NCBI GenBank assembly: GCA_041659605.1
Contig: JBAZXW010000012.1
Coordinates: 138-64,137 of the forward strand
Source of the DNA: Sinimarinibacterium sp.
GTDB lineage: Bacteria; Pseudomonadota; Gammaproteobacteria; Nevskiales; Nevskiaceae
Reading direction: 5' to 3'
DNA: 64,000 nt
Part shown: positions 10,781-27,607 of the stretch, piece after piece
How positions within the stretch are numbered: the stretch's first letter is position 1
Layout: every line of letters begins with the position of its first letter
Notes under the pieces: model-generated
Database searches by the model: none
What the model was told of the DNA's origin: nothing
Seen by the model: only the letters and a program-made list of their open reading frames with translations
Made by a program: the position numbers and the translations under genes

Positions 10781-12730
10781 ATGCGCAAGACCCTGATCTG
10801 TGCTGCGGCAGCCACGCTGCTGCTGAGTGCCTGCGGCAAGAAGGACGAAGCGACGGCTCCGGTGGCGGCCACCCCGGCCGGACCGACCGCCGCCGAAGCC
10901 GATGCCTTCGTCGCCAGCGTCAACGACGACTACCGCAAGCTGCTGCCGTACCTGAACTCGGCGCAGTGGGCGCAGGCGACCTACATCACCGATGACACGC
11001 AGATGATCGCGTCGCGCGCCAACGAGGAGTGGCTGGAATACCTCAGCCGCAAGGTGCAGGAGTCCAAGCGCTTCAACGACGTCGAGGCTTCGCCCGACAC
11101 CGAGCGCGGCATGCTCGCGCTCAAGCTGTCGACCGCCAATCCGGCGCCCAGCGATGCCACCAAGCGCGCCGAGCTGGCCAAGATCCTGTCGAAGATGGAA
11201 GCCAACTACGGCTCCGGCAAGTGGTGCAAGACCGACGGCCAGTGCCTGAGCCTCCCGGAGATCGAAAAGATCGTCAACGACCCGACTGCGAGCCCGGAGA
11301 CGCGCGCCGAGGCCTGGGCCGGCTGGCACGCGACGTCGAAATCGATCCGCCCCGACTACCAGCGCTTTGTCGAGCTGGGTAACGAGGGCGCCAAGGAGCT
11401 GGGCTTCGCCAACCTCGGCGAGATGTGGCGCGCCGGCTACGACATGTCGCCGGTGGAGTTCGACGCCGAAGTCGAACGCCTGTGGACGCAGGTCAAGCCG
11501 CTGTACGACGCGCTGCACTGCAACGTGCGCGCCAAGCTCAACGCCCAGCTCGGCGACGCCGTCGTACCCAAGGACGGCCTGATTCCGGCGCATCTGCTCG
11601 GCAACATGTGGGCGCAGCAGTGGAGCAACATCTATCCGCTGGTGGAGCCGTACCCCTCGACCGGCAAGGGTGGCGTCGGTTCGCTCGACGTCACCGCCGC
11701 GCTCAAGGAGCGCCGCGACACCGAGTACAAGAAGCGCGTCGCCGAGTTCAAGGGCAAGCCGACGGCGCTGGATCTGGCCGAGATCGAGCACCAGGCCGAC
11801 GCGGCGATGGCGGTCAACATGACCAAGATGGCCGAGGACTTCTACACCTCGCTCGGCTTCCCCAAGCTGCCGGATTCGTTCTGGGAGAAGTCGCTGCTGG
11901 TCAAGCCGCGCGATCGCGACGTGGTCTGCCACGCCAGCGCCTGGGACATGAACATGCAGGGCGACGTGCGCATCAAGCAGTGCATCGAGCCGGACGAGGA
12001 CCAGCTGACGACGATTCACCACGAGCTCGGCCACCTCTACTACGATCTGATGTACAACCCGCTGCCGCCGCTGTTCCAGGGCGCCGCGCATGATGGTTTC
12101 CATGAGGCGATCGGCGACACGGTGACGCTGTCGATGACACCCGAGCATCTGCACAAGATCGGCCTGGTGCCCGAGCAGAAGGCCGATCCGAAGGCCGTGA
12201 TCAACTCGCAGATGAAGCTGGCGCTGGACAAGATCGTGTTCCTGCCCTGGGGCAAGCTGGTCGACCAGTGGCGCTGGAAGGTGTTCGCCGGCGAGATCAA
12301 GCCCGAGGACTACAACGCCGGCTGGTGGCAGTTGCGCGAGCAGTACCAGGGCGTGAGCCCGCCGCTGGCGCGCGCCGAGTCCGACTTCGATCCGGGTGCC
12401 AAGTACCACATCCCCGGCAACACGCCGTACACGCGCTACTTCCTCGCCTTCATCCTGCAGTTCCAGTTCCAGAAAGCGCTGTGCGACGCCTCCGGCTTCG
12501 AGGGCCCGCTGCACGAGTGCGACATCTACGGCAACGCCGAGGCCGGCAAGCGCTTCATGGACATGCTGGCGCAGGGTGCGAGCCGGCCGTGGCCGGAGAC
12601 GCTGGAGAAGCTCACCGGCACGCGCGAGATGGACGGCAGCGCGCTGATCGAATACTTCGCGCCGCTGATGGACTACCTCGCCGAACAGAACAAGGGACTC
12701 TCCTGCGGCTGGGGCGCGGACAAGACCTGA
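10781..12730 (+). CDS. M2 family zinc metallopeptidase (ACE-like peptidyl-dipeptidase), lipoprotein
   Basis: Lipobox LSAC; HLLGNMWAQQW, HHELGH zinc motif, GFHEAIGD, FDPGAKYHIP. Confidence 0.95.
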   Translation: MRKTLICAAAATLLLSACGKKDEATAPVAATPAGPTAAEADAFVASVNDDYRKLLPYLNSAQWAQATYITDDTQMIASRANEEWLEYLSRKVQESKRFNDVEASPDTERGMLALKLSTANPAPSDATKRAELAKILSKMEANYGSGKWCKTDGQCLSLPEIEKIVNDPTASPETRAEAWAGWHATSKSIRPDYQRFVELGNEGAKELGFANLGEMWRAGYDMSPVEFDAEVERLWTQVKPLYDALHCNVRAKLNAQLGDAVVPKDGLIPAHLLGNMWAQQWSNIYPLVEPYPSTGKGGVGSLDVTAALKERRDTEYKKRVAEFKGKPTALDLAEIEHQADAAMAVNMTKMAEDFYTSLGFPKLPDSFWEKSLLVKPRDRDVVCHASAWDMNMQGDVRIKQCIEPDEDQLTTIHHELGHLYYDLMYNPLPPLFQGAAHDGFHEAIGDTVTLSMTPEHLHKIGLVPEQKADPKAVINSQMKLALDKIVFLPWGKLVDQWRWKVFAGEIKPEDYNAGWWQLREQYQGVSPPLARAESDFDPGAKYHIPGNTPYTRYFLAFILQFQFQKALCDASGFEGPLHECDIYGNAEAGKRFMDMLAQGASRPWPETLEKLTGTREMDGSALIEYFAPLMDYLAEQNKGLSCGWGADKT

Positions 12731-18420: not shown

Positions 18421-19235
18421 GTGTCCTCGCCTCGCCGTGCTGTTCCACGCCCCCCGAGGCGGCCGCCCCCCGGACCGTGATGGAGATCGAGCGCCTGGGC
18501 CTGGCCTATCACGGCGCCTGGGCCTTCCGCGACGTGTCGCTGCAGATCCCCGCGAACACCGTGACCGCGCTGATCGGCCCTTCCGGCTGCGGCAAGACCA
18601 GCTTCCTGAGCTGCCTGAACCGACTGAGCGACCTGATTCCGGGCTGTACGACTGAAGGCAGCGTACGTCTGCGCGGGCGTGACATTCGCGATCGCGACGT
18701 TGACGTCGTCGCGCTGCGCCGCCAGGTCGGCATGATTTTCCAGAAGCCCAATCCGTTCGCGCTGTCGATCCGGCGCAATATCGAGCTGCCGCTGCGCGAA
18801 ATCGGCGTCCGCGATCGCAGCGAAGTCGATGCCATTGTCGAGCGCGTGCTGCGCGAAGTCGGGCTGTGGGAGGAAGTGAAGGACCGCCTCCAGGCGCCGG
18901 CACTCGCTTTGTCCGGCGGCCAGCAGCAGCGCCTGTGCATCGCGCGTGCGTTGACGCTGCAGCCCGAACTGCTGCTGATGGACGAGCCCTGCAGCGCGCT
19001 CGATCCGATCGCATCCGGCGTCGTCGAGGATCTGATCGCGCAGCTGAAACAGCGCTACAGCGTGCTGATCGTCACCCACAACCTCGCGCAGGCCCGGCGT
19101 ATCTCCGATCGCTGCGGAGTGTTCTGGGTGCGCGGCGGCACTGGCGGGCTCGTCGAATGCGGGGAAACGGGTTGCATTTTTGAGTGCCCGACTGACCCTG
19201 TCACCGCCGCCTACGTGCAGGGGCGACGGGGATGA
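18417..19235 (+). CDS. pstB: Phosphate ABC transporter ATPase
   Basis: GPSGCGKT, VGMIFQKPNPF, LSGGQQQRLCIARAL, LLMDEPCSALDP; ATG overlaps the pstA stop. Confidence 0.93.
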   Translation: MSVLASPCCSTPPEAAAPRTVMEIERLGLAYHGAWAFRDVSLQIPANTVTALIGPSGCGKTSFLSCLNRLSDLIPGCTTEGSVRLRGRDIRDRDVDVVALRRQVGMIFQKPNPFALSIRRNIELPLREIGVRDRSEVDAIVERVLREVGLWEEVKDRLQAPALALSGGQQQRLCIARALTLQPELLLMDEPCSALDPIASGVVEDLIAQLKQRYSVLIVTHNLAQARRISDRCGVFWVRGGTGGLVECGETGCIFECPTDPVTAAYVQGRRG

Positions 19236-19450
19236 GAGACTCCCTCGCCACAGCGCTCGCGCCAGAACACCTACGCCGCACGGGCCTGATCGCGCTCATC
19301 GTCGGCAGCTGGCTTACGGCGTTCAATCACGGCGATGCGCTGCTCGCGGGCGCTTGGAGCGCCAAGCTCGCGCTCAAGGTGTTCCTGAACTACCTGACGC
19401 CCTTCGTCGTGGCCAATCTGGGTCTGCTGTCGCGGCACACGACACCCTGA
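19232..19450 (+). CDS. Small membrane protein, NrtS-like
   Basis: ATGA-coupled to pstB; IALIVGSWLTAFNHGDALLAG...NYLTPFVVANLG resembles the NrtS family pattern. Confidence 0.7.
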   Translation: MRDSLATALAPEHLRRTGLIALIVGSWLTAFNHGDALLAGAWSAKLALKVFLNYLTPFVVANLGLLSRHTTP

Positions 19451-21114
19451 TCGGCGGCAGGCGGGGGCAAATAAATCATCCGCCGGGCGGACTGTCGGAC
19501 CGCTCCGTACCAAGGGCTGCCGTTCGCGATCTTGGCGTGGGTGTCGCCGACCGACTCGGAGCGGCAGTTTGAATAGGACCTGCCTTGATTGGAGACCTGA
19601 CTTACAGGCGCGCCTGGACGCGCTCGCAACACCGAGAGCGCAGCCATACTCGCCAGGACCAGCCAGAACAGACTGTCGCCGAAGCGCGCGTACGGCGTCA
19701 GGTCGCTGCGCAGCGGTGCGCGTTGCGCACTGAACGCTGACGTCTCGGCGTCGCCGGCGGCGAGCCACCTGCCGCTCGGCAGCACCATCCCCGCAGATCC
19801 GCCGTTCACCGACCGCAGCAGGCTGCGGCGCAGTTCGACGGCGTGGATCCGCGCCATTGCCAGATCCAGCTCGCCGCCGCGCCAATCGCGAAACAGCGAC
19901 AGGTTCGCCTGCTGCAGCAGCACCTGCGCGCCCGCATTCACGGCGCGGCGCAAGTCGTGGCGGAAGTGGATCTCGTAGCAGATCGCCGCCAGCAGCGGCG
20001 GCAGCTCGGCGGCGGCGATGGGGGAGCCGGCCTCGGCGAGCGGATCCGAAGCTTCCAGCAACGGTCGCTCGATCGCCGGCACCCGCCGCGCCTTGCGCCG
20101 CTCGGCCTGGATGCCTGCCGGCGTCACCAGTCGCGTGGTCAGTATGTCGTCCGCGAGATGGCAGGTGATTAAGAGTGGCGTGTCCAGCTCCGCGGCGAGG
20201 CGCTGCGCCGCGATGCAGCTGCGATCCGGCAGGCGTGTCACGCGCGGCGTCTCCGGCCACAGCACCAGCGCGACGTCGGGGTTCGCCGCCACCCCGGCGC
20301 GCGTCAGCTCGATCGCCGAGCGCGGCGCCGACAGGCCGAGGTCGCGGGTCAGCATCGCGTCCGGGGTTCCGCTGGGCCATTGCGCCTGCAGCGTCAATAC
20401 CGTCAACCGCTCGCTGGGCTCGGAGTCGACCTGCGGGAGGCGCCAGACGCCGTAACCGAGCGCGAGCGCCGCCGGCACCAGCACCGCGAGCACCGCGCCG
20501 CGGTTGCCGGCGCCGGGCCAGCACTGCGCCAGCCCCGCGTTGAGCGTCAGCAGCAAGCCGAGCAGCAGCGGCTCACCGCCGATCTCGGCCAGTTGCGTCA
20601 GCAGCGGCCAGCGCGAAATCAGCACCGCCGGCGTGTACATGAAGACCTGCGGGCAGCACAGGATCGCGCTGGCTAAGCCGAAGCCCGCGATCCATGGCGC
20701 AATTGCGCCGCGCTGCAGGCGCGGCAGCGCGCACCACAGCGCGCCGAACAGCGCGAACGGCGCCGCGACCGCGCCGAACAGCACCGCCAGCTCCAGGTCG
20801 CCGCGCCACGACGGGTGCACCGAAGTCACCGCGTGGTAGAACGGCGGGAACTTGCCTGGCACGGCGTAGCACAGCCCGGCTACCAGCCCCCACGCCGTCG
20901 CCGCCCGTGGGCGCAACCCGCGCAGGCACAGGAAGTACGGCGTCAGCGCCAGCACCGCGAATACCGGCTGGTCGCCGAGCCCGGGCGTCGCCGCCCAGAC
21001 CAGCAGCGCCGTCAGCATGCAGCAGGCGCTGCGCGCGGCCGCGGCGTGCATCCAATGCAGCGCCGCCGCGGGGATGACGATGCCAGCCGTCGAGGCGATC
21101 GTTGCGCTGTTCAC
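19390..21114 (-). CDS. Divergent apolipoprotein N-acyltransferase-like protein (membrane domain plus nitrilase fold)
   Basis: Multiple TM helices, then VLWPET (E), RRKARRVPAIE (K), ICYEIHF (C), IHAVELRRSLLRSVNGG; the C-terminal ~60 aa look like read-through. Confidence 0.75.
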   Translation of the reverse strand: MNSATIASTAGIVIPAAALHWMHAAAARSACCMLTALLVWAATPGLGDQPVFAVLALTPYFLCLRGLRPRAATAWGLVAGLCYAVPGKFPPFYHAVTSVHPSWRGDLELAVLFGAVAAPFALFGALWCALPRLQRGAIAPWIAGFGLASAILCCPQVFMYTPAVLISRWPLLTQLAEIGGEPLLLGLLLTLNAGLAQCWPGAGNRGAVLAVLVPAALALGYGVWRLPQVDSEPSERLTVLTLQAQWPSGTPDAMLTRDLGLSAPRSAIELTRAGVAANPDVALVLWPETPRVTRLPDRSCIAAQRLAAELDTPLLITCHLADDILTTRLVTPAGIQAERRKARRVPAIERPLLEASDPLAEAGSPIAAAELPPLLAAICYEIHFRHDLRRAVNAGAQVLLQQANLSLFRDWRGGELDLAMARIHAVELRRSLLRSVNGGSAGMVLPSGRWLAAGDAETSAFSAQRAPLRSDLTPYARFGDSLFWLVLASMAALSVLRARPGAPVSQVSNQGRSYSNCRSESVGDTHAKIANGSPWYGAVRQSARRMIYLPPPAADQGVVCRDSRPRLATTKGVR

Positions 21115-21126
21115 GTTGCTTGCGAC

Positions 21127-22479
21127 CTAGTCGTTGTCGTCGATGCGCACGCGCTCGGCCAGCTGCGCGCCAGGCTTTGCGTTTCTGATGCGACCGAGGC
21201 GCAGGCCCACGTACTCCAGCGGCTCGGCGATCTGGTCGTCGACCAGGGCGAGGGTGACGCTCGCGGTGGTCTGGCCGGGCGCGAAGCTGACGACGCCGCT
21301 CGTCGCGCTGTAGTCGTCGGGGCGGACTGCGGAGCCGCCCAAGCGCAGCGGCACGCTGACTATCGCCTTCGACGGCGCCGACAGCGACAGGTTCACTTGC
21401 ACGTGGGCGCCTTCGACGACGGTGCGATTGGCCGCGTCGGTGAATCGCAGCTCCGGCAGCGGCACGGCGTCACCCCAGGTATAGCCAAGCGACTTGGGCG
21501 GGCCGTAGCCGTATTCGACGACGCCATCGGCATTGGTCCGCGATCCTTCCATCAGCAAAGTCATCGGTAGCGACGCCGCGTCGAACCCGGCAGGCAGCAG
21601 CGGATCGGTGTAGTCGCGGCCCGGCACCCAGTGGCCCTGGGCGATCTGCGGCGCATTTTGGATCGGTTGGAAGCTCTTGAAGTAGAGCACCAGCCAGACG
21701 CTGTCGGGCTGCGTCAGCTCGTAGCCGACCATCGTCGGGTTCACGCGGTCGCCGATCCTCACGGGGACCGAGTAGACGTAGTCGTTGTCGACGTCGCGGA
21801 TGTCGACGATGAGTTCCTGCAGATGGCCGTGGCGATCGGTGGTGTAGCGCAGGTCCGCCAGCGCGCCCTTGAACTCGTAGTCGCTGTAGTCGTGCCCGGC
21901 CTGTATCTCCTCGAACTCGCGGTACAGGACGTAGGGCGCCCAGTGCAGGCGACCGGGCCGCGTGAAGAACGGATCGTCCGCCGCCGGCACGAAGTCCGGA
22001 TCGAGCAGGTACGAGGACAGCAGGCGCGGCACGCCGTCGCCGATGTCCATGAACATCGGCTCGCGCTGCCAGCCGGGGACGGCGTAGTGCGTCGCGTCGA
22101 TCGGCGTCGCCATCAGGCTATAGGCGACGAGCAGCAGGTCCACGTTGCCGGCCCGGAACGGGAAGGTGACCACGCCGTGGACTTCGTCCCAGCTGCCGCC
22201 GAGGGCACCCCTCAGCGTTTCGCCGTCGGGCGGTCGCGCCGTGGTCGCGGCGACGAGCTTGGCCCGGTGCGCCTGGTCGTGATAGGCCGCGTAACCCGGC
22301 GTCGGTCGCTGGCTGGGCTGCTTGAAGGCCAGTTTTGCATCTACTGGTACGCTAGATCCGCCGAGATTGCAGTTGATCGGGGTGGCGCTGCCCGAGGCGC
22401 TGTGCAGGGCGATCAGTCCGGCGACCGCGGCGACCAGGGCGCGGCGTGCGCCAGGCAGGGTAATCGATCGATGCTTCAT
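21127..22479 (-). CDS. Secreted protein with unknown N-terminal domain and C-terminal Calx-beta domain
   Basis: Start MKHRSI at 22479 with GGAGAG RBS and signal peptide; C-terminal DDYSATSGVVSFAPGQTTASVTLALVDDQIAEPLE...RIDDND. Confidence 0.8.
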   Translation of the reverse strand: MKHRSITLPGARRALVAAVAGLIALHSASGSATPINCNLGGSSVPVDAKLAFKQPSQRPTPGYAAYHDQAHRAKLVAATTARPPDGETLRGALGGSWDEVHGVVTFPFRAGNVDLLLVAYSLMATPIDATHYAVPGWQREPMFMDIGDGVPRLLSSYLLDPDFVPAADDPFFTRPGRLHWAPYVLYREFEEIQAGHDYSDYEFKGALADLRYTTDRHGHLQELIVDIRDVDNDYVYSVPVRIGDRVNPTMVGYELTQPDSVWLVLYFKSFQPIQNAPQIAQGHWVPGRDYTDPLLPAGFDAASLPMTLLMEGSRTNADGVVEYGYGPPKSLGYTWGDAVPLPELRFTDAANRTVVEGAHVQVNLSLSAPSKAIVSVPLRLGGSAVRPDDYSATSGVVSFAPGQTTASVTLALVDDQIAEPLEYVGLRLGRIRNAKPGAQLAERVRIDDND

Positions 22480-22527
22480 GTCAGCTCTCCTGTGTGTGTC
22501 TGTTGTACGCGCGACGGCCCGCCGACG

Positions 22528-22547
22528 AATCACGAATTCATGTGATT
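22528..22547. promoter_or_regulatory. 20-bp imperfect palindrome, copy 1 (candidate operator)
   Basis: AATCACGAATTCATGTGATT, about 50 bp upstream of the Calx-beta gene start. Confidence 0.6.
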
Positions 22548-22910
22548 GGGTGCAGCGAACAATCCGACGACCGCGCGGCCGATGGCGCGCGGGCTGCTGT
22601 CCTTCAACAGGCAGCCGTGCGCGCCGGCCGCCAGCGCCGCACGCTGGCGCGGGCAGCTGTCGAAAACGCTCATGACGATGATCCGCGTGCCCGCGCGCAG
22701 CGCTTCCGGGATCAGGTCGCCGCCGTCGCCGTCCGGCAGGCCGAGGTCGAGCAACAGCGCGTCGGGCGTCCGTGCGTCGAGCTCGGCGCGGGCCTGGGCA
22801 CAATTGCCGGCGGTGGCGAGCAGTTGCAGCCCGGGGTCCTCGGCAATCGCTGCCGCGAGGCGCTCGCGTGTGCGGGGATCGTCTTCGACCAGTAGGACGG
22901 TATAGGCCAT
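22530..22910 (-). CDS. Stand-alone REC domain protein (NarL-like, no HTH)
   Basis: VLLVEDD, LLLDLGLPDG, LLKD; clearly similar to the REC of 24819..25484. Confidence 0.75.
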   Translation of the reverse strand: MAYTVLLVEDDPRTRERLAAAIAEDPGLQLLATAGNCAQARAELDARTPDALLLDLGLPDGDGGDLIPEALRAGTRIIVMSVFDSCPRQRAALAAGAHGCLLKDSSPRAIGRAVVGLFAAPNHMNS

Positions 22911-22942
22911 GCGCGCAGTGTCCGCGCGCAGCCACGCCGCGT

Positions 22943-22962
22943 AATCACGAATTCATGTGATT
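22943..22962. promoter_or_regulatory. 20-bp imperfect palindrome, copy 2 (identical to copy 1)
   Basis: AATCACGAATTCATGTGATT, about 33 bp upstream of the REC-only gene start. Confidence 0.6.
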
Positions 22963-22971
22963 CGGGTCGGG

Positions 22972-24813
22972 TTATGACCCGGTGGGCACCCACAGAACGA
23001 TGCGTGTGCCAGGCGAAACCGATTCGAAATCCAGCCGCCCGCCCATCTTCTGCGCGCGCACGCGCATGTTGGACAGGCCATAGCCGCCGGATTCGACTCC
23101 CGCCGGATCGAAGCCCGCGCCGTCGTCGCGCAGCTCGACCCTCACGCCGTTTTCATGCGAGCTCGCGCCGACGCTGAAGGTCTGCGCGCCGGCATGCTTC
23201 ACCGTGTTCGTGAACGCCTCCTGCACCACGCGCATCAGCTGGAGTGTGGCGCCGCGCTCCAGCGCGAGCGACTCCGGCAGGGCCTGCATGTCCCATTCGA
23301 GTGCCAGGCCCGCGTCCTCGGCCAGGCGCGCGATCCGCTCGCGCAAGGTGGCCAGCGCGGCGCGCAGCGTGCCGCTACCCTGGTCGAGCGAATAGATCAT
23401 CAGCCGCAGGTCGTCGAGCGCGCTGCGCAGGGACTGCGCGGCGGCGGAATCCCTTTCCCCCTGCAGGTCGAGGCCCGCAAGGGTGGATACGAGCGTGCCA
23501 CCCAGGCCGTCGTGCATGTCGCGCTGGATGCGCTCGCGCTCGTCGGCGAGCAGGCGCTGCTGCTCGCTGCGCCTGAGCTCCTCGTAGGTGCGCTCCAGCT
23601 CCGCCTGCTTCTGCCGGACGCGGTCGTCGAGCTCGCGGTTGAGCGTTTCCGATTCGCGCAGGGCGCCAAGGAAGCGCGCGATCAGGATCGACGTGAAGAC
23701 GCCGATCCCGAGCCAGATCATGTAGTGGAAGTACTCCCCGTCGAAGGGCGCGAGCAGGCCGTTCTCCATCAACACGTCGCGGCCGCCGGCGGCCAGCAGC
23801 GAAGCCGCCGCGGTCAGCATCCAGACCGAGGACGCCGTGCGCTGCTGCCACGCGTGGCGCACGAACAGCGACACCGGATAGAAGCCGAAGGCGAATGTAA
23901 GCGCCGAGCAGACCGTCACGGCAAGCGTGGAGAAGTTCGCGGGGCTGGCGATTGCCACTGCCGCCATCGCCAGCGCGCCGAGCGCGCTGTACCCGCCCAG
24001 GAAAGCCGCCAGCCGCGGCCGCGACAGGCCGAGGAAGTGCAGACCGAACACGGTGACCGCCGCGATCATCCAGGCACGCGACACGTGGTGCAGCCATTCC
24101 CACCACACCGATGGCAGCGACAGTCCGGTGGAAACCAGGCCCAGGCAATGCAGCACGACCGCCGGCATGGTCAGCGAATACCAAAGGTACACGCGCTCCT
24201 CGCGGCGGCCCCACCACACCGCGAACATCACCAAGCCGAGCACCAGCACGGCCACGATCAGGACGTAGATGGATTGGACGTTGAGGAACTGGCGCAGGTC
24301 GAAATACGGCTGCAGTTGCGCCAGCGGACCGAGATAGACCTGCTGCAAGAAGCCGCTCCCGGACGGCTCAGCGCGCAGCTCCACCGCGATGTCGTTGGCC
24401 CCGCTGCGCAACAACCGCCCCGGGACGCGGAACAGCAGCGGGCGGAAGCTGTAACGCGCCAGCGGCTCCTGCATGCTGCCACCATCGCCGATGCGCTCGC
24501 CGTTGACGTACACGGCGGCGTTCAGGCTCAGGCTCGGGAGGTAGATCACCCACGCCTCGTCCGGCGCCGAGGCGAGTTGCGCGGCAGTCTCGTAGCGCGC
24601 GCCGCGCAGCTCCGGCGCGAACTCGCGCCACTGGTTCGGGAGGACGGTGCTCGGGGACACCAGCACCGCCGGATCGAGGCCGACCAGGGTCCAGCGCCCG
24701 CCGCCTGCAAGCCAGGCGTCCGGCGGCTGGATCCGGTGCAGCCCGACGAGGGTGGCGACGAATCCCAGCCAGGCCAGCAACCCAAGCAGCGAACGCCAGC
24801 CGAGCGAGCTCAC
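22972..24813 (-). CDS. Membrane sensor histidine kinase (periplasmic sugar-binding-like domain, 7TM region, HisKA_3 type)
   Basis: GTG start at 24813; ERERIQRDMHDGLGG H-box, QEAFTNTVKHA, DDGAGFD, GYGLSNMRVRA. Confidence 0.88.
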   Translation of the reverse strand: MSSLGWRSLLGLLAWLGFVATLVGLHRIQPPDAWLAGGGRWTLVGLDPAVLVSPSTVLPNQWREFAPELRGARYETAAQLASAPDEAWVIYLPSLSLNAAVYVNGERIGDGGSMQEPLARYSFRPLLFRVPGRLLRSGANDIAVELRAEPSGSGFLQQVYLGPLAQLQPYFDLRQFLNVQSIYVLIVAVLVLGLVMFAVWWGRREERVYLWYSLTMPAVVLHCLGLVSTGLSLPSVWWEWLHHVSRAWMIAAVTVFGLHFLGLSRPRLAAFLGGYSALGALAMAAVAIASPANFSTLAVTVCSALTFAFGFYPVSLFVRHAWQQRTASSVWMLTAAASLLAAGGRDVLMENGLLAPFDGEYFHYMIWLGIGVFTSILIARFLGALRESETLNRELDDRVRQKQAELERTYEELRRSEQQRLLADERERIQRDMHDGLGGTLVSTLAGLDLQGERDSAAAQSLRSALDDLRLMIYSLDQGSGTLRAALATLRERIARLAEDAGLALEWDMQALPESLALERGATLQLMRVVQEAFTNTVKHAGAQTFSVGASSHENGVRVELRDDGAGFDPAGVESGGYGLSNMRVRAQKMGGRLDFESVSPGTRIVLWVPTGS

Positions 24814-24818
24814 GCTTG

Positions 24819-25484
24819 TTAGTTCCGCGGCCGCGTCAGCAGGCCGCGCTGCTCGGCCTCGCGCACCGCTTTGCCGCGCGAATTGACGGCAAGCTTGTCG
24901 TAGATGTGCTTGATGTGCGTGCCCACCGTATTGATGGAGATGAACAGCCGGGTGGCGATCTCGGCGTAGGAGCAGCCGTCTGCCACCAGTTGCAGGACGC
25001 CGATCTCGCGGGCGGAAAGCTCGTCGACGAGCTTCGCCGCGGGCATCGGCACCAACGCCGGCGCGGCCTGCAGGTGCTTGAGCAGGTAACGCGCGACCGC
25101 GGCACTGATCGGCGAGCCGCCGGCCAGCAGGTCCGCGATGGCGCGCCCGATCTCGCGCTCGCTGGCGTCCTTGAGCAGGTAGCCGCTGGCGCCGGCGCGG
25201 ATCGCCTCGACCACGTGCGCCTCGTCGCCGAACACGGTGATGACCATGCTTCGCGCTTGCGGATGCGCGGCGCATGTCTCGCGGATCAGGTCGGCGCCGG
25301 AGCCGTCCGGCAAACCGAGATCGGTAAGCAGGACATCTGGCGCGACGCGCACCAGCTGGGCGCGCGCTTCAGCACAGCTGCCAACGTCGGCGATGAGGCA
25401 GAGCGCCGGGTTGGCTGCGATCGCGCGCGCCAGCCGGGCGCGGGTTCGCGCATCGTCCTCGACCAGCAAGATCCGGTGCGGCAC
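24819..25484 (-). CDS. NarL/LuxR family response regulator
   Basis: REC plus LSAREIGVLQLVADGCSYAEIATRLFISINTVGTHIKHIYDKL HTH. Confidence 0.93.
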   Translation of the reverse strand: MPHRILLVEDDARTRARLARAIAANPALCLIADVGSCAEARAQLVRVAPDVLLTDLGLPDGSGADLIRETCAAHPQARSMVITVFGDEAHVVEAIRAGASGYLLKDASEREIGRAIADLLAGGSPISAAVARYLLKHLQAAPALVPMPAAKLVDELSAREIGVLQLVADGCSYAEIATRLFISINTVGTHIKHIYDKLAVNSRGKAVREAEQRGLLTRPRN

Positions 25485-25691
25485 GGTCAGTCAAGCCCCC
25501 GATTGACGAACGACAGTATGGATGCATTTGGGTGAACGCATGTCCGGGACGGCGGTAACCAGACGCAACCGCAGTGGAAAGCCCATAGGTCTCCGCCATG
25601 GCCTGTGCGCGCCGCCTGCCGTCCAGGCCGACCCCGCGACCGACTCCAACGGGCTGATCAGCGACCGTGGTCACGGCGGCCGTAGCAGAGG

Positions 25692-26648
25692 TTACCTGTC
25701 CGGGCATAGATGGATTTCAATCGTCGAGTGAACAATCTCCTCGTGGATCGACAATCGTTTGCGCACAGTCTCCGGCGTAAGCGTTGCATCATGGGTGACG
25801 ACAGATAACGCACACGAATAGACCCGCTTGCCGACTCGCCACACATGCAGGTCGGTGATCCTCGTTTCGCCGGCACCTGTTTCGACCGCTTCACGAATTT
25901 CATCGACAACAGGGTGATCCATCTCGCGATCCAGCAAGACCTTGCCGGTATCGACGATCAGGCCTTTGGCCCACACAGCCACCAGGACGGCGCCGACGAT
26001 ACCCATGACCGGGTCCAGCCACGACCATCCGAAGAACCAGCCGCCGATCAGTGCGACGATCGCGAGGACTGAAGTCGCCGCATCGGCGACCACGTGGAGA
26101 TAAGCCGACTTCAAGTTCAGGTCATGATGAGCGCCGTGAGAATGCTCGTGCTCTTCGTGCGAGTGCCCATGTCCATGCGGATGGTCGTGATGGTGCGCCT
26201 TGCCGAGAATCAGTGCGCAGAGCAGGTTGACCAGTAGCCCCAGAACCGCAACGACGATCGCCTCCCGATAGTGAATCGGTTGGGGCGAGAAGATGCGCTC
26301 AGTCGAACCGATCACCATCATCGCGGCGACGCCAAGCAGGACGATCGCGCTGGCAAAGCCGCCCAGAATCTCGATCTTCCAGGTGCCGAACGCGAAACGC
26401 GGATCCCGCGCGTAGCGGCGCGCGGTGGCATATGCCATCGCGCTCAAGCCAATGGCGACCGTGTGGGAGCTCATGTGCCACCCATCGGCCAGCAGTGCCA
26501 TCGAGTTGAACCACCAGCCCGCGACGATCTCGACGATCATCATCGCCGCAGTGATCCACATCACCACCCGGGTGCTGCGCTCCGCGGACGCGTTGCTCGT
26601 ATCGAACGCGTGCTCGTGCTTCCACGCGGAAAGGTTTTCGGTATGCAT
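25692..26648 (-). CDS. dmeF: CDF family Co/Ni efflux transporter, DmeF-like
   Basis: Start MHTENL; SMALLADGWHM, His-rich loop HHHDHPHGHGHSHEEHEHSHGAHH, AYLHVVADA, DLHVWRVG. Confidence 0.88.
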   Translation of the reverse strand: MHTENLSAWKHEHAFDTSNASAERSTRVVMWITAAMMIVEIVAGWWFNSMALLADGWHMSSHTVAIGLSAMAYATARRYARDPRFAFGTWKIEILGGFASAIVLLGVAAMMVIGSTERIFSPQPIHYREAIVVAVLGLLVNLLCALILGKAHHHDHPHGHGHSHEEHEHSHGAHHDLNLKSAYLHVVADAATSVLAIVALIGGWFFGWSWLDPVMGIVGAVLVAVWAKGLIVDTGKVLLDREMDHPVVDEIREAVETGAGETRITDLHVWRVGKRVYSCALSVVTHDATLTPETVRKRLSIHEEIVHSTIEIHLCPDR

Positions 26649-26673
26649 TTCGCCCTCGTATCGGCGGGGTGAA

Positions 26674-27252
26674 TCAGAAGCCAAGCGTGGCACCAGCACC
26701 CAGCAAGGTTGCAGTACCCAAGACGGCGAATATCGCAGCGGCAATCGAATGCACCAGCTTCATCGGTATTTTCTTGGCCAGCCGGTCGCCGACGAAGACC
26801 GCCGGAACATCCGCGATCAGCATGCCCAAGGTCGTGCCGATCACGACCAGGACGGGCGCCGCATAGTGGGCGGCCATCGCGACCGTGGCAATCTGGGTCT
26901 TGTCACCCATCTCGGCCAGGAAGAAGGTGATCAGCGTCGCGCCGAACACCCCGAATCGCTTCGCGACCTTGGTTTCTTCTTCCTCGATCTCGTCCGGAAT
27001 CAGGGTCCAGAGGGCCATGCCGATAAACGAGAGCCCGAGCACCCAGCGCAGCACCTCCGGGCGCAGAACGGCCGTGATCCACGCGCCAAGCGCGCCGGCG
27101 ATGCCGTGGTTGACAACGGTCGCCGCCAGAATGCCGGCAATGATCGGCAGCGGCTTCTTGAAGCGGGCGGCGAGAATAAAAGCGAGGAGCTGGGTTTTGT
27201 CGCCGATTTCCGCGAGAGCAACAACACCGGTCGAGACGAAGAGCGATTCCAT
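26674..27252 (-). CDS. TMEM165/GDT1 (UPF0016) family Mn2+ exporter
   Basis: Two ExGDKTQ motifs (AEIGDKTQL, AEMGDKTQI); start MESLFV at 27252. Confidence 0.92.
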   Translation of the reverse strand: MESLFVSTGVVALAEIGDKTQLLAFILAARFKKPLPIIAGILAATVVNHGIAGALGAWITAVLRPEVLRWVLGLSFIGMALWTLIPDEIEEEETKVAKRFGVFGATLITFFLAEMGDKTQIATVAMAAHYAAPVLVVIGTTLGMLIADVPAVFVGDRLAKKIPMKLVHSIAAAIFAVLGTATLLGAGATLGF

Positions 27253-27309
27253 GACGATTCCACGGCCGGCATCAGACGAATGACCACGACGCAACCCCGG
27301 CCATCGGAG

Positions 27310-27422
27310 GCGTTGTGGTCAATGGTCTTGCCATGCGCAGGGACCGTTTACGCCATGGCCTGTGGGCCAAGTGTGTTGACGTAAACCTCTTCGTGACGAA
27401 GAGCGGCTACTCCCCAGTGACC
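27310..27422 (-). ncRNA. yybP-ykoY manganese riboswitch
   Basis: Minus strand GGGGAGTAGCC...CGTCAACACACTTGGC...GCCATGGCG...GGCAAGACCATTGACC directly upstream of the TMEM165 gene; boundaries approximate. Confidence 0.85.
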
Positions 27423-27607
27423 CGACGATATTACCACGTAGAGCCGGCGGGCTCCGTCGAACGCAGGGCCAGAAGCAGGATCAAACGTTCCTGATTGCTG
27501 TCAAATTCTGTCCGTGCCGTTCGACTACCGTGTGAAGGCGCCGGATGAATGACCGGCGCGAGGGCTAAAGGGCGGCTGAGGCTGCACTCAAGCAAAGGAG
27601 AGCAACG

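Follow-up and report, generated by a model that had tools for sequence, protein, structure and literature searches.

Why should the gene for a membrane enzyme related to the acyltransferase Lnt stand directly behind the gene for a secreted protein that carries no lipobox? The question is raised by a cassette of five genes in a 64,000-nucleotide stretch of DNA (the window) from a Sinimarinibacterium sp. in a groundwater metagenome assembly (GCA_041659605.1, contig JBAZXW010000012.1, positions 138 to 64,137). All five are on the minus strand, arranged head to tail, and encode a NarL/FixJ-type response regulator, a sensor histidine kinase, a receiver-only response regulator, a secreted protein (here called X) and the Lnt-like enzyme. 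An initial annotation, made from the sequence of the window, had proposed the five genes as one self-contained system in which a dedicated acyltransferase lipidates or anchors the secreted protein or a product of it. The cassette exists as claimed and with the same boundaries, but it is not kept as five genes elsewhere, and the conserved unit is the pair of X and the Lnt-like gene. The pair points to an envelope-modification module not described before, and no description of the X/Lnt-like pairing was found in the literature, where one hit, on a RiPP-lipoprotein hybrid, proved irrelevant. It is the enzyme family alone that is already known, and not its dedicated pairing, its partner family or its substrate.

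Conservation of the gene pair

In the neighbourhood search that the initial annotation had recommended, X was found to adjoin a gene of the Lnt-like clade in 14 of 15 informative lineages, the window included, the loci being drawn from metagenomes and metagenome-assembled genomes (MAGs). In the reverse direction, an X gene adjoins all four of the Lnt-clade members that were looked up. The two genes are separated by 3-20 nt or overlap, and these short distances suggest translational coupling. The query of the metagenome scan was the tail-less subgroup of X, the broad alignment of 42 sequences being too divergent, and a scan of genome contigs returned only two loci, in Oceanococcus/Oceanococcaceae MAGs, both of which other searches had already given, and not the genome of the window. 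The named relatives of the module are Oceanococcus and Oceanococcaceae MAGs, among them the Oceanococcus MAGs GCA_041619315.1 and GCA_039768115.1.

The pairing is independent of the C-terminal tail of X, of gene order and of the regulator encoded nearby (Table 1). AraC-type regulators are the commonest beside the pair, two-component genes are found in two lineages, and an extracytoplasmic function (ECF) sigma factor with a Ser/Thr kinase is found in one.

Two further genes are seen next to the pair in single lineages. An alpha/beta-hydrolase (Abhydrolase_1/Hydrolase_4) is encoded after the Lnt-like gene in L009 (9528-10433) and L010 (2951-3856), which is weak evidence for turnover of a lysophospholipid by-product. 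In L015, the gene between X and the Lnt-like gene encodes an M23 peptidase (11110-11739).

Table 1. Features of the cassette, with positions in the window, and order of genes at related loci (L numbers)
Feature or locus	Positions	Strand	Description
NarL/FixJ-type response regulator	24819-25484	-	221 aa; Pfam Response_reg 8e-17, GerE 3.5e-16
Sensor histidine kinase	22972-24813	-	613 aa; 7TMR-DISM_7TM, coiled coil, HisKA_3, HATPase_c
Repeat copy A (operator and putative promoter)	22919-22965	-	holds 20-mer 22943-22962; upstream of receiver-only gene
Receiver-only response regulator	22530-22910	-	126 aa; Response_reg E 8e-17; ATG at 22910
Repeat copy B	22504-22550	-	holds 20-mer 22528-22547, dyad TCACAT-GAAT-TCGTGA; upstream of X
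Secreted protein X	21127-22479	-	450 aa; signal-like N-terminus, linker, all-beta core, Calx-beta
X core	21445-22227 (aa 85-345)	-	conserved, about 260 aa, all-beta
X Calx-beta domain (PF03160)	21190-21402 (aa 360-430)	-	30.5 bits, cut-off 27; only Pfam match
Lnt-like membrane acyltransferase	19390-21114	-	574 aa; lnt model, triad, clade alignment
L001-4			kinase, X, Lnt-like, regulator
L005/13			AraC, X, Lnt-like
L006			X, Lnt-like
L007/8			AraC, X, Lnt-like
L009/10			divergent AraC, X, Lnt-like, alpha/beta-hydrolase
L011/12/14			divergent AraC, X, Lnt-like
L015-17			AraC, X, M23 peptidase, Lnt-like
L018			ECF sigma, Ser/Thr kinase, Lnt-like; 4-bp overlap with X (reversed order)
L020			X, Lnt-like
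L023/27 and L024			X and Lnt-like convergent
L025/26 and L028			AraC, X, Lnt-like

The Lnt-like enzyme

The only family matched by the product of the last gene is TIGR00546 (lnt), at 75.5 bits against an equivalog cut-off of 132.9, and the match extends over residues 114-449 and over positions 32-394 of the 395 in the model; Pfam CN_hydrolase reaches 22.0 against a cut-off of 23.2. The protein consists of a multi-pass N-terminal membrane domain, a nitrilase-type domain, a final transmembrane helix and an extension of about 70 non-conserved residues. In an alignment of the window protein with four Lnt sequences of canonical type and ten members of the clade, its hydrophobic segments appeared co-linear with those of canonical Lnt, as expected for an enzyme with the same membrane domain, nitrilase domain and terminal helix. 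In a phmmer comparison with the E. coli Lnt structures, only the last approximately 130 residues aligned (E 1e-9), including the motif AAICYEI around the catalytic cysteine.

An E-K-C triad had been read from the sequence at the outset, in a gene starting 12 nt beyond X, and both points hold: the GTG at 21114 sits 12 nt past the X stop codon, and E288 (codon 20251-20253), K341 (20092-20094) and C379 (19978-19980) align with the triad of Lnt. E288, in the motif WPE, and K341 do not vary among the aligned sequences, and C379, in ICYE, is found in all clade members and is replaced by Ser in one canonical-type sequence. Because the triad is conserved, the enzyme looks catalytically competent and not decayed. 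A cluster search (5.8 billion) returned nine relatives at 35-49% identity (E 1e-45 to 1e-124), and canonical Lnt followed in the same search only after a large gap, at E ~1e-7. By this measure of sequence, the Lnt-like proteins are a small clade apart from canonical Lnt, amounting to about 10 clusters among the 5.8 billion. They also differ in a motif about 30 residues past the catalytic cysteine, which reads N-[FL]-x-x-F-R in the clade and N-D-x-W-F in canonical Lnt. What is common to Lnt (TIGR00546; PDB 5N6H, 5XHQ, 5VRG) and the enzyme of the window is therefore the architecture, the triad and the ICYE motif, whereas the score below the cut-off, the altered motif, the adjoining gene of a lipobox-free secreted partner and the local regulator set the latter apart.

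These data bear on the possibility that the gene is a housekeeping lnt, or a decaying copy of one, whose position beside X is incidental. Lnt is indeed the sole family matched, and no other lnt-related gene was found within the 64-kb window. The explanation is nevertheless most improbable, given the low score, the distinct clade, an open reading frame (ORF) and triad that are both intact, and the adjacency to X in nearly all informative lineages; in addition, the clade is rare, whereas housekeeping Lnt is widespread. The suspicion of a decayed housekeeping copy, which the initial annotation had named as a reason to abandon its proposal, is answered by the finding that the gene belongs to a clade of its own, whose members are full-length and keep the triad.

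Both ends of the reading frame call for comment. Public annotations place the start at ATG 21018 (542 aa) in one case and at GTG 21114 (574 aa) in another; among the starts at 21018, 21051 and 21114, the choice of 21018 would cut the first conserved hydrophobic segment. GTG 21114 is favored as the true start because the spacing from X to the Lnt-like gene is 3-20 nt in the relatives. At the other end, the last approximately 70 residues of the ORF (19390-19608) are unconserved in the clade, and this extension crosses a terminator-like hairpin (19478-19492) and enters by 60 nt a convergent 72-aa ORF (19232-19450) that follows pstB. The approximately 70 added codons may reflect a lost stop codon or may be untranslated as drawn.

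Secreted protein X

The X gene begins with an ATG behind GGAGAG, and its product has a signal-like N-terminus of residues 1 to about 33. As the initial annotation had it, the protein lacks a lipobox and contains an unrecognized domain: residues 85-345 match no Pfam or NCBIfam family, and nothing meaningful was returned by Pfam for all 19 close members of the family or by NCBIfam for eight X homologues. The Calx-beta domain that follows the core is found, within the X family, only in the window copy and in a 93%-identical relative. An initial search with the N-terminal part of X gave five relatives at 39-43% identity, and a profile search extended these to 19. The family is rare, because an exhaustive hidden Markov model scan of 1.84 billion representative proteins gave only 49 matches at E<=1e-3, 18 of them at E<=1e-30.

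The structure prediction that had been recommended succeeded once enough relatives were available. With an alignment of six sequences, AlphaFold modeled X at a confidence (pLDDT, predicted local distance difference test) of 33, and with 19 sequences the core (residues 85-345) was modeled at a pLDDT above 90 as an all-beta fold of about 20 strands. Foldseek comparison of the core model with PDB and BFVD gave nothing at E<0.001 (template modeling score, TM<=0.13), and a profile search of PDB sequences with X was empty. Conservation over 42 sequences is highest at V100, W137, D244 and P286 and next highest at Y132, P151, Y198, D229, G243 and P258; no Lys, Ser or Cys is invariant.

The pattern [LVI][ASTVI][GAS]C is found in its strict form in two of about 55 X members and in a loose form in four more, and is not present in X of the window, whose sole early cysteine, C37, is preceded by P-I-N. 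X was considered as an atypical lipoprotein, and this was rejected: the cysteine is missing in several members, and residues -3 to -1 seldom fit a lipobox. Past the signal peptide, many but not all members (P0004, P0045, P0051, P0062 and P0100 being examples with it) carry a C-x4-C motif, often as C-x-x-P-x-C, of which the window protein retains only the second cysteine; the motif may form a disulfide loop or be a site of non-canonical modification. Around residues 10-14 (22440-22479), the signal peptide contains ARRALV, readable as a weak twin-arginine motif. Export by Sec appears more likely than by the twin-arginine route because homologues lack the RR pair. Among the few X proteins that do fit a standard lipoprotein is P0059, a metagenomic ORF of 727 aa that contains two full X units, each with a signal peptide, the lipobox SLTAC and a GlyGly-CTERM-like tail; the ORF may have arisen by tandem duplication or may be two genes that were read as a single one.

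C-terminal tails of X homologues

Of the 19 X proteins in the close subfamily, 17 carry a C-terminal tail in which a Gly/Ser-rich stretch leads into about 13 hydrophobic residues and then an Arg cluster (for example ...GGGSSGALGPWLLLLMLGAGLRRR), and several more distant members have textbook GlyGly-CTERM-like tails, such as SSGGGTFDWMIVLFAGLGGYRLIARRK. Judged by eye, about half of the wider family has such a tail and about half does not. NCBIfam tail models remained below threshold on the eight X homologues compared with them, the best being MYXO-CTERM at 17.9 bits against 20. GlyGly-CTERM signals are described as a Gly/Ser motif followed by a hydrophobic helix and a basic cluster, with rhombosortase as their known partner (PMC6219818). 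The tripartite tail of most close X homologues resembles these systems (PMC3237569, PMC6219818), but X of the window is tail-less, ending in ...ERVRIDDND after its Calx-beta domain, and the adjoining enzyme is not a rhomboid protease. The presence of such tails on the homologues changes the argument of the initial annotation, in which the acyltransferase was to provide the anchor.

The tails also suggest another role for the enzyme, namely that of a sorting enzyme that would act on the GlyGly-CTERM-like tail in the manner of a sortase, cutting it by way of a thioester and joining the new C-terminus to a lipid amine. The high frequency of the tripartite tail in the close subfamily would agree with this, and an active site at the membrane interface should have good access to the tail. 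The tails, however, look like ordinary GlyGly-CTERM signals, whose known partner is rhombosortase, and X proteins without a tail, in the window and in at least five lineages (L018, L024, L025/26, L023/27 and L028), all keep a neighbor with intact WPE and CYE motifs. Since tail-less X keeps the enzyme, the latter is not a sortase-like tail processor; this candidate was rejected and is given hardly any probability.

Two-component genes and candidate operator

The regulator and the kinase have the features of a NarL/FixJ-type two-component pair, comprising a receiver aspartate (D55, the predicted phospho-acceptor), a GerE helix-turn-helix domain, an H-box (RDMHDGLGG, the histidine being H434) and a HATPase_c domain. 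The kinase starts from a GTG (24813) located 5 nt past the regulator stop codon. Its 7TMR-DISM_7TM domain (PF07695) scores 31.8 bits with a cut-off of 29, and HisKA_3 scores 21.5 bits, just under the Pfam cut-off of 24. The transmitter matches the MctS, MadS and NarQ models at E 1e-19 to 1e-22; in NCBIfam, the kinase has no equivalog assignment and the regulator is under every equivalog cut-off. The sugar-binding-like sensor domain that had been proposed for the kinase was not confirmed. Its extracytoplasmic N-terminal 185 residues match no Pfam family even at E<=10, nor do those of the L001 orthologue, and no model of a DISMED-type (carbohydrate-binding-like) domain matched the window kinase, which may carry a divergent version. 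Compared with those of L001, the window kinase is 39% identical over the full length and the regulator is 53% identical.

The receiver-only protein had been taken for a paralogue of the regulator, and its 54% identity to the regulator's receiver, with D10, D11, D55 and K103 kept, bears this out. The gene is absent from L001 and was seen only in the window and in the 93%-identical relative. It is probably a lineage-specific feedback element that acts as a phosphate sink. The window thus has the 7TM block, HisKA_3/HATPase transmitter, REC-GerE regulator and dyad operator of known 7TMR-DISM kinase and NarL/FixJ systems, and differs from them by lacking a DISMED match and by having an extra receiver-only paralogue with its own copy of the operator.

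The palindromes reported earlier were in part confirmed. The 20-mer AATCACATGAATTCGTGATT has exactly two identical copies in the window, at 22528-22547 and 22943-22962, with a chance expectation of 0.07 and two matches in none of 100 shuffles; it is an imperfect palindrome, in which base-pairing is limited to the outer 6+6 bases. No third copy was found in the window with one mismatch permitted, and none lies upstream of the regulator gene. Each 20-mer is contained in a 47-nt direct repeat, the two copies of which are 81% identical. Copy A ends 9 nt before the ATG of the receiver-only gene, and its dyad is centered 42.5 nt upstream of that codon (22910). Copy B ends 25 nt before the X start codon, with the dyad centered 58.5 nt upstream of it, and the last codons and the stop codon of the receiver-only gene fall inside this copy.

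A perfect dyad, TCGCAT-ATTC-ATGCGA, is located between the kinase gene and X in L001, its center 69.5 nt upstream of the X start. When the window and L001 dyads are aligned by their centers, they have TCRCAT at -8 to -3 and GYGAT at +5 to +9 in common, and the consensus TCRCAT-N4-..GYGA is found upstream of X in both two-component lineages. Among the 28 loci scanned, the 11-mer ATCRCATGAAT was found only upstream of X in L001-4, in addition to the two sites of the window. Control of X and the Lnt-like gene by the NarL-type regulator, which the initial annotation had assumed for the cassette, is plausible because a dyad with the same center lies upstream of X in the other two-component lineage. 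Judged from these motifs, an extracytoplasmic signal may activate the 7TMR-DISM kinase, which would phosphorylate the NarL-type regulator. The phosphorylated regulator could then act on two targets by binding the dyad TCACAT-N4-TCGTGA that precedes each of them: the receiver-only paralogue, as a probable phosphate sink providing feedback, and the X/Lnt-like operon. Apart from the result given below, the promoter and terminator scans were uninformative.

Proposed reaction and alternatives

A possible role for the pair can be outlined on the model of Lnt. X would be exported, and the active site of the enzyme would lie at the periplasmic face of the inner membrane, by homology with Lnt. An acyl group could be transferred from a phospholipid to the catalytic cysteine as a thioester and from there to an amine, the acceptor being located on X itself. 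Since the family has no invariant Lys, Cys or Ser, the N-terminal alpha-amine of X may be the most probable acceptor, and the reaction would yield an envelope protein that carries a lipid without needing a lipobox. We prefer this reading tentatively, rating its chance as somewhat short of even. The wider claim that a new pathway exists, in which a dedicated N-acyltransferase would acylate a single Sec-exported, lipobox-free protein from phospholipid and bypass Lgt/LspA, with a partner fold that is absent from solved structures, is more doubtful; if true, the pathway would parallel in prokaryotes the acylation of Hedgehog or Wnt.

Several observations weigh against acylation of X. Acylation of X by the Lnt-like enzyme is inferred, the N-terminal regions of X are poorly conserved, and no acceptor motif is visible in them. 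Many X homologues already have a membrane tail at the C-terminus and would have less need of a further lipid anchor. The conserved residues W137, D229, D244, Y132 and Y198 look more like a ligand-binding site and would suit X as a partner better than as a substrate. The pairing also has exceptions: in L021/22, X has no adjoining enzyme, and in P0097, a very distant X (E 1e-6), the next gene encodes a helicase and the upstream side is off the contig. With respect to regulation, no sigma-70-like promoter was detected near the dyads in the promoter scan. An IS200-like transposase gene and a VapBC pair directly follow X in L022 (3130-5615) and also in L021, which suggests that the pair was broken there by an insertion.

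Some of these points lead to a different assignment of roles, in which X is an obligate partner that binds a ligand or presents a substrate, and the pair N-acylates or de-acylates a third envelope molecule, such as an amine-bearing lipid, a glycan or lipoproteins generally, as an inducible envelope-remodeling module. We regard this as possible, if somewhat unlikely. Aromatic and acidic residues, as in binding sites, are the best conserved in X, its N-terminus has no visible conserved acceptor motif, and its anchoring varies freely between a tail, none and a Calx-beta domain, as expected if only proximity to the enzyme matters. Regulators of small-molecule type nearby (AraC with AraC_binding_2) suggest induction by a compound, and an inducible enzyme of lipoprotein acylation has a precedent in the copper-inducible Lit2 of Firmicutes. 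No third substrate is, however, encoded consistently nearby, the neighbors beyond the regulator differing in every lineage, and no resemblance of X to a binding or carrier fold was detected. It is quite unlikely that the enzyme is instead an amidase or hydrolase that cuts an amide bond in X or in a ligand bound to X, a type of reaction common in the nitrilase superfamily. The E-K-C triad is common to the amidases and transferases of the nitrilase superfamily, and N-[FL]-x-x-F-R in place of N-D-x-W-F hints at a different substrate, but the whole architecture and the best database match are specifically those of Lnt, whose membrane domain serves to reach lipid substrates.

In the usual view, Lnt has a general housekeeping task on lipobox lipoproteins, and it is a drug target. 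A separate Lnt clade tied to a single lipobox-free secreted partner suggests that the scaffold has taken on a second and specific task in the envelope. Acylation of X would follow the same genetic logic as HlyC/HlyA and CyaC/CyaA, in which the acyltransferase gene lies beside that of its single protein substrate, whereas HlyC and CyaC are cytoplasmic enzymes of unrelated fold that depend on acyl carrier protein-bound acyl groups and modify lysines in the interior of RTX toxins. Alternative enzymes that modify the N-terminus of lipoproteins are Lit/Lit2, LnsAB and the Lnb of Bacteroides (PMC8275575, PMC7387801, bioRxiv 2024.05.31.596883). They show that non-canonical enzymes, some of them inducible and mobile, can acylate lipoproteins. 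In contrast to the enzyme of the window, their sequences have no relation to the nitrilase superfamily; they act on lipobox lipoproteins generally and are not known to have a dedicated adjoining partner. The pair of X and the Lnt-like enzyme could reveal a new lipidation route for bacterial surface proteins or a new acyl acceptor, and a function found for it would also cover an all-beta family without known relatives. The variable anchoring of X, by a GlyGly-CTERM-like tail, by none or with a Calx-beta domain, offers a natural test case for swapped anchoring modes.

Genomic setting of the cassette

PADLOC gave nothing meaningful for the five cassette proteins; it has no model for the X/Lnt-like pair. 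The cassette is flanked upstream by a GDT1/CDF operon under the control of a Mn2+ riboswitch and downstream by a convergent pst operon; at 90% identity, its PstA stands alone in the protein collection. No RNA-seq runs were found for the organism. Contigs from a soil metagenome (run X2) are about 93% identical to the window over 19623-25511 and hold the whole cassette, the receiver-only gene and the Calx-beta portion of X included. No soil contig matched the flanks of the window at >=85% identity, the matching ending at both borders of the cassette, and one contig continues for 967 nt past 25511 without matching the window. The cassette of the soil relative may thus lie in a different genomic context.

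The flank upstream of the cassette is on the same strand. A Mn2+ (yybP-ykoY) riboswitch (27256-27427, minus strand, 102.6 bits) lies 5' of genes for a GDT1/UPF0016 cation antiporter (26674-27294, minus strand) and a CDF cation-efflux protein (25692-26744, minus strand), the two being located directly upstream of the cassette. Together they form a probable Mn-export operon.

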